In this document: in pieces, positions 3,975-63,090 of the stretch | How the letters are laid out: each line of letters opens with the position of its first letter | Position numbering within the stretch: position 1 is the first letter of the stretch | Source: an uncultured bacterium | GTDB taxonomy: Bacteria > Patescibacteriota > Gracilibacteria > Absconditabacterales > Absconditicoccaceae | Direction: 5' to 3' | Length of the DNA: 64,000 bases | NCBI GenBank assembly: GCA_916049765.1 | Contig: CAJZIX010000003.1 | Coordinates: 12,520 to 76,519 of the forward strand | Notes under the pieces: generated by a model | Told to the model about the DNA's origin: nothing | Database searches by the model: none | What the model saw: only the letters and a program-made list of their open reading frames with translations | Program-made: the position numbers and the translations under genes

Positions 3975-5741
3975 TTATTTTTTTCCTTCTAAATTTTTTA
4001 GATGATTAGCAAGATTAGCAAAAATCTGATCAGGTTTATTTCTATTTTTTATATCTCCAAGAACTCGATCTAAAGCCACTTCTAGCAACTCTCCAATAAT
4101 TTTTCCTGGTTTAAGATTGAAGTACTCCATTATATCTCTCCCCTTAACTGCAAGATCTTTAGATCTAAATTGCCCTTCTTCTTGTTCAATTTCAAGGAGA
4201 AGTTTTTTGAGATACCGAGAATCGCTAAGATCACTTGCATTCTGGAGTGGATTATACATCCCCATTCTATCTGCGATATTGATATCAAGAAGATTATTTA
4301 CTCTTTCAAAACCAGCATCAGAGAGGAGTTTTCTAAGTCTCTTAGCTCGATTCTGAGGATTTCCGAGGAGAATTTCTCAAGGAGTATGATGCTCTCTAAT
4401 ATATCGCTGAATCTCCTCAATCTCTTTATGAGAAAATCAAAGGTTTCTAAAATCCTCTTCAGCAAGCACCGCAGAACTAAACCTATGGTTAAGCGGACCC
4501 GCCAGAAGGATTCTGATTTCTTCTTTTGAAAGATTTTTCCCATATTCTGCATATTGACCAACTTTTCCGACATCATGATAAAGCATTGCAAATCTGACTA
4601 AGTAATTTGTGTTAATTGCTTGAAGGTGATAGAGTGTCAAGATAATATGCGAATAAATATCAAATGGATGATACCTAATCGGCTGATCAATATGTTTAGT
4701 TAGTGCAAGTGCAGGAAAAAGAATTACTAACATTTCTGCCTCGTCTAAAAGTCCAACAAGACCAAAAGGGTTACCTTGAGAAAAAGCTTTTGTAAGTTCT
4801 TCTTTAATTCTTTCCTTAGCAATAGTTTTAAGGAGATTATGATTAGATTTAATCGATTTCCAAGTTTCTGGCTCAAAATCAAAAAGTCTTACTTTATTAA
4901 TAGGATCAGATTTTTTATTTTTAGTTGTAGTGAGGAGTTTTTGATTCAAGACATTAACGAACCTCAGTCCCCTCAAAAGTCTAAGCGAATCTTCTTGAAA
5001 CCTCGTATCAGGATTACCAACAGTTCTTAGCTTTTTTAGCACGAGATCTTGAATTCCCAATGCTGGATCAATCAGAATTTGAAGTTGAATCTGCTTTTTT
5101 CCCTTTTTTTCTCCTGCTCAAAAGATGTAGGCATAAGGCTGAATATCTAACAAATAATACAAAAAATCAGTATCAAGTTTTGCATTTGGAATAAGCTGAG
5201 AAAGGAGTTTTTGACTCTGAATAATAAGAGTTTCATTATTTTGAAGATAAATAAACCCCTCTTTATTTAAAATTTTAAGAAGCATTTCCTCATTTATTAT
5301 CTTTTTTTGCTCATATACCGGTGTTTTCAACTTTTGCTGAGTATAATAGATCGCATTAATCGTAAAATCCCTTCTCTGAACATCTAAAAGCAAATCATCA
5401 CTCCAAAAAATTTCCTCTGGATGTCTACAATCTTGGTAACCAGTTTCAGCACGAAGAGGTGTAAGCTCATATTTAAGTTCATTATCCTTATCTTTGGGAA
5501 TCAAGGTAATAGTACCGTATTTTTCAGTTATAAAGTGAGAGATTCCATCTTTATCGATGTTTTCATATATTTCCAAAGGATTTCCTGCCATCGTAAAATC
5601 AATATCAAGAGGATTCTTAGTGGTTCCAAGAAGTATCTCTCTTACACAACCTCCCACAAGAAAAAAATCTGATTTCCCTATTTTTTTAGTTAGAAAAACA
5701 TGATGAGGAATCAGTTTTTTAAGATTATTAAAATGAAGCAT
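3975..5741 (-). CDS. cca: CCA-adding tRNA nucleotidyltransferase with C-terminal HD domain
   Basis: Track pieces 3975..4265, 4437..5060 and 5118..5741 are in one frame, and I checked the gaps codon by codon (only TGA, no TAA/TAG). GGCVREILLG...DIDF, RDFTINA, HD motif YHDVGK. Confidence 0.88.
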
Positions 5742-5949
5742 CTTCTCTATCCCATAAGTAAATATTCTTTATATTTAACTTTTTACTTCGTAGATACAAG
5801 AGAAGGCTTATTCTGCTATTCTAAATCATAATTTTTATAATTCAAAAAATCTGAATTTAAACTATTTCATCATTTATTCCAGAAAAATCAGATTGTATTT
5901 CTCAAGGATTTATCTATGCTCAAAAGAAAGTTTTTACTTCTAGTCCTAG

Positions 5950-6816
5950 ATGAGAGGAATTGTTCAAAGCAAACCATTTGTCAAAAAATCTCAGAAAAGA
6001 TTGTCTTCACATACAAACTTCTTTTTTTCAACAAAAAAAAGAGGGAAAGACCAATATTCCTTATTGTTTCTTTTTTTTAAAAAATGGGGAGTTTTAATTT
6101 TTATCATCTTTCTTTCTTTATTATTAGGAATCTTCATTCTCAAAGGAACACGATACAACCCTGCATACTTAATCAAAAAAATTGAATATTCAGACACAAC
6201 AAGAAAAAATTATGGGAATACTGAACTTTTTGTCCTTGCATCTAAATTTCTTAGAGGGAAATATTATAATACCTTGAGAGTTAACTGAGAGAAACAGCTT
6301 ACTGATTGGATAAAAAAATCCTACCCTTTTGTAAAATCAACAAAACTTACTTTTCATGGCAACCAAACACTCAAAGTAGACATTACTTTCTTTGAGCCAG
6401 AGTTTTTGATAAAACTAGGAAACAAAAAATTCGGTATCTGGGAAGGAGGAATAAGTGATGAATTAGATGATCAACGATCCCTTGGAAAAACTGGTTTTAT
6501 CGTAGATACTCCATCCTATCTAACAGGAACAACCTCCCTTTCTGGCTTCTTTTATGAAGTGAATTATCAGCGATATAAAGACTTTTTACCAGCCATTCAG
6601 GAGGCTTTTCCTCATATGAATCGCTTTGTCTACTTAGCGGGATCGCCAAATTTCGTGATTTTTGAGGAGAATAAAATGATCTTTCTCTATAGAGATAATC
6701 CTCTCTATCAGCTTCAAAAACTCGCTTGGCTTAGAAAGTATTATGCAGATTATAAAGCTCTAACAACTATTGATCTTGGAAGTTTAACTCAAGAAAAAAT
6801 CGTAGTTGGAAAATAA
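5950..6816 (+). CDS. Membrane-anchored FtsQ/DivIB-like (POTRA-type) protein, tentative
   Basis: 5950..6288 and 6406..6816 share a frame, joined through one TGA. One N-terminal TM helix followed by a pattern resembling the POTRA/FtsQ fold (YPFVKSTKLTFHGNQTLKVDITFFEP). Weak similarity judged by eye only. Confidence 0.45.
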
Positions 6817-62800: not shown

Positions 62801-62959
62801 AATTCCGAATACCACAAATCCTGCTACCGTCCACATCAGTTTTTTCCCAATATTCTGAGTATTCCAAGAAAACCTCTGTTGCTGAGGAATAAAAGATCTT
62901 CTCTTAAAATTTTTCGGAGTATAAGCATACATTGGATTTCTCTGCATTATCTTTCTCAA
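59810..62959 (-). CDS. Class A penicillin-binding protein (glycosyltransferase plus transpeptidase) with C-terminal Ig-like extension
   Basis: Seven track pieces are in one frame. EDQRFWDHEG and (G)GSTITQQL (GT51), SGSSIKP (SxxK), K-T-(TGA)-T-S (KTG box, TGA at 60938-60940). Stop TAA 59810-59812. ATG 62947 or an alternative start at 62959. Confidence 0.88.
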
Positions 62960-63090
62960 TCATATAAAGAACATTTTCAACAATAAGCGAGATGACTATA
63001 CTTATTTCCAGGTTAAAAACAAGAATAAAAAATCTGATTTCTCCTTTAGAAAAAACACCTTAACAATGAAAGTTAAGATGTTTCTTATAT

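Follow-up and report, generated by a model that had tools for sequence, protein, structure and literature searches.

The 64-kb window analysed here (G000:C3:12520-76519) comes from the genome of an uncultured bacterium of the order Absconditabacterales (G000; 935 kb, 25 contigs, 35% G+C), and it is rich in a short word, AATCWGATT, and its relatives. We show that this word is maintained at the DNA level by a force that prevails over the choice among synonymous codons, that it is lineage-specific within the Absconditabacterales with dialect words in related genera, and that the force operates in lineages with the competence proteins ComEC, DprA, ComFC and ComM but has ceased where these are missing. 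Sequence comparisons suggest that the word is probably a DNA uptake signal kept by transformation in this host-associated SR1/Absconditabacterales clade or, more cautiously, a transformation-linked signal. The SecY proteins of G000 and ‘SR1 bacterium human oral taxon HOT-345’ share 86% identity, and the nearest records are metagenome-assembled genomes (MAGs) that carry the label SR1 or Absconditabacterales. TGA is read as a sense codon, as long open reading frames (ORFs) cover 1.19 genome-equivalents with TGA read through and 0.40 under table 11. Genes were called crudely under code 25 as greedy longest ORFs, giving 847 genes and 90% coding DNA.

AATCWGATT occurs 19 times in the window, compared with 3.10 +/- 1.82 in dinucleotide shuffles (largest value 8). 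The longer AAATCWGATTT occurs 12 times against 0.48 expected, and there are 51 sites for TCAGATTT. Across the 935 kb of the genome we counted 203 AATCWGATT and 107 AAATCWGATTT sites. Here the ratio of observed to expected is 3.6 and 11, respectively, under a Markov background of order 3, and 1.9 and 4.7 under order 5. Only at order 7 does it fall to near 1, because a model of that order already contains the sub-words of which the word consists. No 9-mer of the genome is more over-represented than TCAGATTTT/AAAATCTGA, found 490 times against 80 expected at order 3 (ratio 6.1, z 46); the longer forms GTCAGATTT and AAGTCAGATTT, which extend it, likewise rank among the top words. The 8-mer half-word occurs approximately every 1.3 kb and AATCWGATT every 4.6 kb.

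Tabulating substitutions around AATCAGATTTTT gave R-D-T-C-W-G-A-H-T-T-T-(T), and the same table was obtained in a second species, G005. Central A and T are equally good. Position -1 accepts A, G or T but not C and, in mirror fashion, position +5 accepts T, C or A but not G, which makes the site a dyad, AAA-D-TCWGA-H-TTT. The degenerate word can be written 5'-AAA(A/G/T)TC(A/T)GA(T/C/A)TTT(T)-3', of which TCAGATTTT is the stronger half and AAAAATCTGA one spelling. Given TCAGA, TTT follows on the right in 16% of cases and AAA precedes on the left in 10.5%, compared with a baseline of 4-5%. The two halves are found together 107 times, against 76 expected. The halves are thus almost independent, and the palindrome is therefore two overlapping inverted half-words. 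The original prediction, made from the window, had treated the palindrome as the unit; its dyad is real, but it represents only a subset of the larger half-word family TCAGATTTT/AAAATCTGA. In a sequence logo, information is confined to about -5..+18 and comprises A-tracts upstream, the T-run and, at +14..+18, another T-tract.

The word is laid out with little regard to strand, frame or gene. Orientation of the half-word is balanced (356/372) and barely correlated with GC skew (r = 0.10), which rules out an oriented word of the Chi/KOPS kind. About 80% of TCAGATTTT copies are coding (158 sense, 231 antisense) and are spread over five or six frames (sense 60, 13 and 85; antisense 79, 86 and 66). 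A REP or MITE element is ruled out, as most copies are coding and flanks are not conserved. We then shuffled synonymous codons within each gene, holding proteins and per-gene codon usage fixed. Only 65 of 303 relaxed 11-mers were retained, and 42-47 of the 158 sense and 231 antisense half-words. Relative to this shuffle the word family is 2.5-4.9 times over-represented (TCAGATTTT 3.7-4.9 times), and TCAGATTTT is 9-18 times more frequent than when codon order is shuffled. Therefore, the word has been accommodated at the expense of codon choice as well as of residue order, and a codon or peptide artefact is ruled out. These data agree with the original suggestion of selection at the DNA level. 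That prediction had named a ratio near 1 under a higher-order Markov model, or confinement to one peptide motif and frame, as outcomes that would speak against it. Instead the ratio stays well above 1 at orders 3 to 5, the excess survives the synonymous shuffle and the word is read in nearly all frames. Tandem, convergent and divergent spacers are all 2-3 times richer in the word than coding DNA, with no preference for convergent spacers. Only 8 convergent inverted pairs within 60 nt were found among 728 half-words, so that a general terminator element is also ruled out. We found no quasi-periodic spacing, the coefficient of variation of gaps (0.95-1.08) being that of a Poisson process.

To place the word among relatives we counted it in 16 genomes of the same genus (g1) and in 141 genomes across the order, using the reversed word as control. 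Within g1, TCAGATTTT is present in 272-636 copies in 13 of 16 genomes and in 91-122 copies, about one-fifth of that number, in the remaining three (G010, G014 and G016); the reversed control gave about 10-35. About 200-570 copies were found in genera g51, g53, g43, g46 and g39, and mostly 20-130 in the remaining genera, with g52 (88-208), g20 and one g18 genome in between. The exact palindrome has 67-236 sites in word-rich g1 genomes, 10-14 in the three word-poor ones and 0-15 in most genera; g46 has 565 half-words and almost no palindrome (6). A different word, TCWGNTTAT, reaches 976-1406 copies in five g19 genomes and about 500-580 in g41 and g45, and is at baseline in g1. The order therefore has related but distinct words with a common TCWG core. 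In the Neisseriaceae such a pattern of related words in neighbouring genera has been called dialects (PMC3630211). No dominant word or dialect was found in the whole of word-poor G014, whose top words are weak and tRNA-like.

The three word-poor g1 genomes also lack detectable competence genes. ComEC was identified in all 13 word-rich g1 genomes and in 0/3 word-poor ones. DprA was likewise not found in G010, G014 and G016, nor were ComM and ComFC, which were tested in five genomes and split in the same way as ComEC. In a SecY tree the three form one clade (100/100), which is nested (95/96) with the word-rich G000, G002, G015, G004 and G008, and the other g1 branches and the sister genus are also word-rich. 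The low word state is therefore secondary. G000 itself carries ComEC, DprA, a ComFC-like protein, ComM, PilB-type ATPases and 7 prepilin-like proteins. We compared whole genomes of the word-poor G014 (1.294 Mb, 99% complete) and the word-rich G005 (1.024 Mb). Of 847 G000 proteins, 42 have a homologue in G005 but none in G014. This co-lost set includes ComEC, DprA, the ComFC-like protein (double zinc ribbon and phosphoribosyltransferase domains), ComM (ChlI, Mg_chelatase and C-terminal domains), YraN, an ATL/MGMT-like protein and a C-terminal piece of UvrB. Of 10 further co-lost proteins scanned against Pfam, 9 had no match and one matched DUF4300. Retained in G014 are RecA, MutS, the pilus (PilB-type) ATPases and 7 pilins. 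Gene order is heavily rearranged, and synteny could be checked only for comFC and dprA; both are missing in mid-contig between conserved neighbours in G014, and were therefore deleted rather than lost to assembly gaps.

A second contrast is provided by G131 (g51), which is without a ComEC, DprA or ComM match and is sister to G134, G127 and G133 (100/99, SecY tree). G131 has 295 half-words and 68 palindromes in 1.5 Mb, compared with 384-446 and 84-92 in 1.1 Mb in its sisters. Copies are thus a quarter to a third below those of the sisters, which is the predicted direction but a modest effect.

Site-level comparison shows what has become of the word in G014. Across 459,564 aligned coding bases common to G000, G005 and G014, 29.7% of the G000 sites (n=229) have the word at the same place in G005, compared with 8.2% for random 9-mers and 0-13% for composition-matched words. 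In G014 only 5.2% do so, against a background of 6.9%, and nucleotide identity at word sites is 0.65 compared with 0.70. Sites present in G000 and G005 but not G014 number 61, those in G005 and G014 but not G000 only 2; the corresponding values for 60 permuted control words are 28 and 32. Sites confined to one lineage number 156 in G000, 153 in G005 and 26 in G014 (controls 360, 387 and 645). Therefore, a force that preserves and creates the word is active in G000 and G005 and not in G014. Of the 68 sites common to G000 and G005, 7 are intact in G014, and erosion there is concentrated in the TCAG core, mostly from G to A. This fast turnover of sites fits a density-driven drive better than a position-specific function. 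Moreover, word density is 0.40 per kb in strain-specific genes compared with 0.76 in core genes, which would follow if DNA acquired recently had so far escaped the drive.

We propose the following mechanism. A ComEC-dependent uptake apparatus, probably with type IV pili, would bind or import word-bearing DNA more readily, and imported fragments would replace chromosomal alleles through RecA/DprA/ComM recombination. Variants that create the word would then be over-transmitted, as in the molecular drive modelled for the uptake signal sequence (USS) of Pasteurellaceae and the DNA uptake sequence (DUS) of Neisseriaceae, and the word would accumulate wherever proteins tolerate it. Two overlapping inverted half-words would yield the palindrome. 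Once competence genes are lost the drive would stop, and AT-biased mutation would erode the G/C core. Among the three options raised by the original prediction (an uptake signal, a site for a dimeric protein or methyltransferase, and a terminator block), the uptake signal is the best supported, given the DNA-level pressure, lack of skew, lineage specificity and fading with loss of com genes. That first interpretation is thus partly supported. To our knowledge, uptake sequences have been established by experiment in two proteobacterial families only.

Several known systems offer close comparisons. The Neisseriaceae DUS is AT-GCCGTCTGAA with its dialects, and is received by the minor pilin ComP (PMC3630211, PMC3868556). 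Like the DUS, the SR1 word recurs roughly every one to few kb on either strand, inside and outside genes. It is confined to certain lineages, and related genera have dialects of their own (TCAGATTTT, TCWGNTTAT and, in g46, the half-word alone); it is also tied to natural transformation, here by co-loss of com genes, and is occasionally paired as a terminator. Unlike the DUS, it is found in the Patescibacteria, or candidate phyla radiation (CPR), in organisms with code 25 and presumably no outer membrane; it is AT-rich and partly palindromic, with a 4-11 fold excess and few terminator pairs, and a receptor is known only for the DUS. The Pasteurellaceae USS consists of a 9-bp core, AAGTGCGGT or ACAAGCGGT, with phased AT-rich flanks (PMC3458573, PMC2817400). 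The SR1 word similarly has a core followed by T-rich tracts about one helical turn apart, fits many frames at a cost in codon and residue choice, is thinly represented in genes under the strongest constraint, among them those of the ribosomal-protein operon, and fits the molecular-drive model. However, its core is only TCWG(A) with a T-run, is dyad-symmetric, shows a much weaker excess and is spaced randomly rather than evenly. The cyanobacterial highly iterated palindrome HIP1, GCGATCGC (PMC4390886, PMC5861425, PMC13756078), is likewise a hyper-abundant palindrome that occurs in every frame and whose conservation between species exceeds background. A 2026 paper correlated HIP1 phylogenetically with DNA-transfer genes and proposed it as a cyanobacterial uptake signal (PMC13756078), the same style of argument as is made here. 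HIP1 differs in being GC-rich and quasi-periodic and in having two conserved methyltransferases, whereas the SR1 word is Poisson-spaced and tracked by none of the methyltransferase families searched. Chi and KOPS are likewise octamer-scale over-represented words of modest observed/expected ratio that act on DNA and not on protein, but they are strongly skewed to the leading strand. Within the CPR, ComEC-dependent natural transformation has been shown in Saccharibacteria, another phylum, and ComEC, DprA and ComFC form a conserved CPR core (PMC10633639). Our literature search found no paper linking Absconditabacteria with uptake sequences.

Several observations weigh against an uptake signal. 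The link to competence rests on only two independent loss events, of which the second is modest and depends on a 90%-complete MAG with 5% contamination; indeed all genomes compared are MAGs, and the phylogeny is taken from SecY single-gene trees. No DprA match was found in the word-rich G009 and G012, nor a ComEC match in the dialect-rich G068, which are probably assembly gaps or recent events. A separate ComEA was not detected in the five genomes searched, where the only HHH_3 (ComEA-type) match is a 753-aa Tex-like protein (G000:C10:23447-25708, outside the window). Most genera of the order that have ComEC and DprA contain few copies of either TCAGATTTT or TCWGNTTAT; competence alone is therefore not sufficient, and a specificity factor is postulated in addition. 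Moreover, over-representation is modest (4-11 fold) for an AT-rich word of low information, well below the tens to hundreds of fold of DUS and USS, and its Poisson spacing is not even. Dyad symmetry is also unusual among known uptake signals, and a dimeric binding protein fits it equally well.

If the word is an uptake signal, self-preferential DNA uptake would have evolved independently in ultra-small, recoded, host-dependent bacteria. Lineages that lose competence and then the word would be a natural experiment on whether drive or selection keeps such words. We know of no genetic system for SR1; should the word enhance uptake, its inclusion in donor DNA could make oral SR1 co-cultures transformable, as for Saccharibacteria (PMC10633639). 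Competence loss accompanied by larger genomes would bear on the idea that transformation purges mobile DNA. The ComEC-lacking lineages G010/G014/G016 and G131 have genomes of 1.3-1.5 Mb, compared with 0.9-1.1 Mb in their sisters. The word-poor g1 clade has 29.7% G+C compared with 35%, and 16-21 TGA codons in secY compared with 0-7. Loss of transformation may thus go with genome expansion and AT drift.

The force might also be linked to transformation but act after uptake, with the word favoured in recombination or repair of incoming DNA rather than at the cell surface. It could be an initiation or processing site for DprA, ComM, RecA or YraN, or the target of biased mismatch correction in heteroduplexes. 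The evidence of co-loss and site decay applies equally here. The co-lost set includes recombination-side genes (DprA, ComM, the nuclease YraN, the ATL/MGMT-like protein) and not the channel alone, and no surface receptor was co-lost, since all 7 prepilin-like proteins are kept in G014; for the same reason a co-lost pilin is ruled out as receptor. We consider this unlikely, as no Vsr-type repair nuclease (PF03852) was found in the five genomes searched, one-step variants (C to T, G to A) are not depleted, contrary to correction of the very-short-patch type, and we know of no DprA, ComM or RecA system with such sequence specificity. A further possibility is a genome-wide site for an abundant dimeric DNA-binding protein that organises the nucleoid or chromosome, the coincidence with competence loss being a by-product of broader change. 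The mirrored tolerance of the dyad, its two equal W centres, co-occurrence of the halves at 1.4-1.8 times independence and A/T-tract flanks typical of bent-DNA sites would all suit such a protein, and word-poor clades do differ in other respects, namely in the genome size and G+C content given above. Against this, turnover is fast, with only 30% of sites common to G000 and G005 and about 155 confined to each, g46 has the half-word without the palindrome, and there is no candidate protein: of the 42 co-lost proteins, the histone-like HU-HIG alone is a dimeric DNA binder, and it fails to track the word. It is absent from four word-rich g1 genomes and all other word-rich genera, and is thus rejected as reader of the palindrome. 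A binding protein therefore seems improbable to a similar degree. There is a slim chance that in these bacteria, which are epibiotic or predatory and scavenge nucleotides, the word is instead a routing tag, directing tagged DNA from self or kin to DprA, ComM and RecA for recombination while untagged host or prey DNA entering through the same ComEC is degraded for nucleotides. The dyad would then reflect a dimeric reader, and a genome released from the system could grow and become AT-richer, in keeping with both competence-less lineages.

The remaining alternatives fare less well. It is very unlikely that the palindrome persists because an orphan DNA methyltransferase recognises it, whether or not a repair bias contributes. 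In its favour, the TCWGA core presumably resembles Type II sites such as TCNGA, and the word is palindromic, hyper-abundant, lineage-specific and found in all frames like HIP1 (PMC4390886, PMC5861425). However, no tested methyltransferase family tracks the word, Vsr was not found and spacing is Poisson rather than quasi-periodic; moreover, as HIP1 is itself now proposed as an uptake signal (PMC13756078), this explanation partly merges with our own. The original option of a dimeric protein or methyltransferase thus holds as regards dyad symmetry, but no shared family was found among the methyltransferases searched and HU-HIG does not follow the word. An RNA-level element or terminator block, comprising stem arms and U-run, would account for the hairpin of two inverted copies and U-run downstream of secY and for the enrichment of spacers. 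With only 8 close inverted pairs among 728 half-words, divergent (promoter-only) spacers enriched as much as convergent ones, about 80% of copies coding and antisense copies (231) exceeding sense (158), it is already largely refuted as a general explanation and we give it scant credence; terminator use, also suggested originally, is true of single cases such as secY but not genome-wide. Finally, the excess can hardly be a compositional, codon or peptide artefact without any specific force. An AT-rich word in a 35% G+C genome, and a ratio of about 1.1-1.2 at maximal Markov order, would be expected of one. Yet the excess is large at orders 3 and 5 and under the synonymous shuffle, reversed controls stay at 10-35 copies, and the AT-richer G014 has fewer copies while the 60 permuted control words are commoner there.

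The search for a methyltransferase or reader covered a defined set of families. In G000, G001, G005 and G009 there was no match over the family cut-off for PF01555 (N6_N4_Mtase), of which G000 has one weak, sub-threshold match, and none for PF02086 (D12/Dam) or PF00145 (C5). For PF02384 (N6_Mtase), two strong G000 genes are not common to G005, which has only a 34-bit match. None of these four families tracks the word; other families were not searched. No methyltransferase catalytic domain was found in the 20 of 42 co-lost proteins scanned against Pfam, the other 22 being judged by eye. A 1541-aa protein adjoining comEC in G005 was ruled out as it is present in word-poor G010 and G016 and is widespread. 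HU-HIG genes lie outside the window (G000:C5:15122-15511, C6:33305-33697 and C8:36624-36977). Ten of the 16 g1 genomes have 2-5 copies each, and no match of similar score was seen in the rest of the order; one G005 copy is on a 3.7-kb contig, and the genes look like cargo of a mobile element or phage. A gene block at G000:C11:16054-26578, also outside the window, has no homologue in G005 or G014 and contains a strong, HsdM-like N6_Mtase (C11:24276-25202). The block probably represents a Type I restriction-modification island peculiar to this strain.

Other differences between the genomes were noted in passing. The C-terminal half of UvrB (Helicase_C, UvrB and UVR domains) is a separate 258-aa ORF outside the window (G000:C12:18032-18808) with no good counterpart in G014 (38 bits), and nucleotide-excision repair may thus also differ between word-rich and word-poor clades. 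In g18, 8 of 30 genomes lack a ComEC match and 7 of these 8 keep DprA, reflecting either recurrent ComEC loss or a divergent ComEC missed by the Pfam model. Word counts in 5-kb secY loci of named MAGs were too noisy for classifying genomes.

Over-representation in the window was understated by the original prediction: all 15 of its AATCWGATT starts are exact matches, and four further copies (3397, 7925, 11336 and 13463, marked additional) give 19. Its seven spacer copies are intergenic by the code-25 gene calls, and the peptides it read at coding copies (KSDF, NQIF, ENLI and, with UGA as Gly, KIGF) are correct. The exact copies are as follows, with CDS denoting coding sequence.

3397..3405, exact AATCAGATT (AAATCAGATTT), in CDS 3165-3965(+), read L-K-S-D-F-L; additional
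5666..5674, exact AATCTGATT, in CDS 3975-5741(-), read G-K-S-D-F-F
5886..5894, exact AATCAGATT, in the divergent spacer 5742-5949
7925..7933, exact AATCTGATT, in the LeuRS-like CDS 6864-9863(-); additional
11336..11344, exact AATCTGATT, in CDS 10539-11906(+), read K-K-I-G(UGA)-F-Q; additional
13463..13471, exact AATCAGATT, in CDS 12876-15509(-); additional
19878..19886, exact AATCTGATT, in CDS 19393-21903(-)
21141..21149, exact AATCTGATT inside AAAAAAAATCTGATTTTTT, in CDS 19393-21903(-), read K-K-S-D-F-F
21973..21981, exact AATCTGATT, in a spacer flanked by two minus-strand genes
22687..22695, exact AATCTGATT, in the divergent spacer 22660-22822
28481..28489, exact AATCAGATT, in CDS 28295-29062(+), read K-N-Q-I-F-F
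31197..31205, exact AATCAGATT, in CDS 30810-31568(+)
32992..33000, exact AATCTGATT, within comEC itself
42510..42518, exact AATCTGATT, in the convergent spacer 42508-42531
44864..44872, exact AATCTGATT, the 3' arm of the hairpin downstream of secY
49645..49653, exact AATCAGATT, in CDS 49282-49806(-), nearly the sole copy in the ribosomal-protein operon
59765..59773, exact AATCTGATT, in a spacer with minus-strand genes on both sides
62030..62038, exact AATCAGATT, in CDS 59810-62983(-), read E-N-L-I-Q-A
63031..63039, exact AATCTGATT, in a spacer with minus-strand genes on both sides

The 12 one-mismatch relatives listed originally are all present within a few bases of where they were placed, in the forms GATCAGATTT, AGTCWGATTT or AATCTGACTT. 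The comEC gene, originally recognised from the letters of the window, has a Pfam Competence domain match, and the stem downstream of secY is real. These features are listed below.

4904..4913, plus strand, GATCAGATTT (half-word TCAGATTTTTT)
10848..10857, plus strand, GATCAGATTT, followed by a T-run
11154..11163, plus strand, GATCAGATTT
15514..15523, minus strand, AATCTGACTT (which is AAGTCAGATT on the minus strand) inside AAAAAAAATCTGACTTTTTT, in a spacer
15647..15656, plus strand, AGTCTGATTT
16163..16172, plus strand, GATCAGATTT
17331..17340, plus strand, AGTCAGATTT
31585..31594, plus strand, AGTCTGATTT, in a spacer
34364..34373, plus strand, AGTCAGATTT with a T-run, 59 nt downstream of comEC
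38590..38599, plus strand, AGTCAGATTT
41626..41635, plus strand, AGTCAGATTT
47401..47410, plus strand, AGTCAGATTT
32683..34305, plus strand, comEC, encoding the DNA import channel, 541 codons under code 25, with the Competence domain at 33463-34287
44855..44894, minus strand, hairpin downstream of secY, AAAGUCUGAUUCUU-GAUGA-AAGAAUCAGAUUU and then UUUUCUUUUU

In the hairpin downstream of secY, each arm of the 14-bp stem contains the word (-16.1 kcal/mol, z -3.5), and the U-run UUUUCUUUUU comes next; the structure is likely an intrinsic terminator made of two inverted word copies, which are one of the 8 pairs of this kind in the genome. The ribosomal-protein/EF-Tu operon (49800-58040) is 8.2 kb without any TCAGATTT, a gap that is not significant by itself under Poisson, and the word-free stretch fits exclusion from strongly constrained genes. 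Among the copies at 5666, 19878, 42510, 59765 and 63031, several are preceded by a purine-rich GGAGA/GGAGG-like stretch, e.g. aggagaAATCAGATTttttat (A-centred strand), and in the genome-wide logo the excess of G at -7..-10 is only slight.

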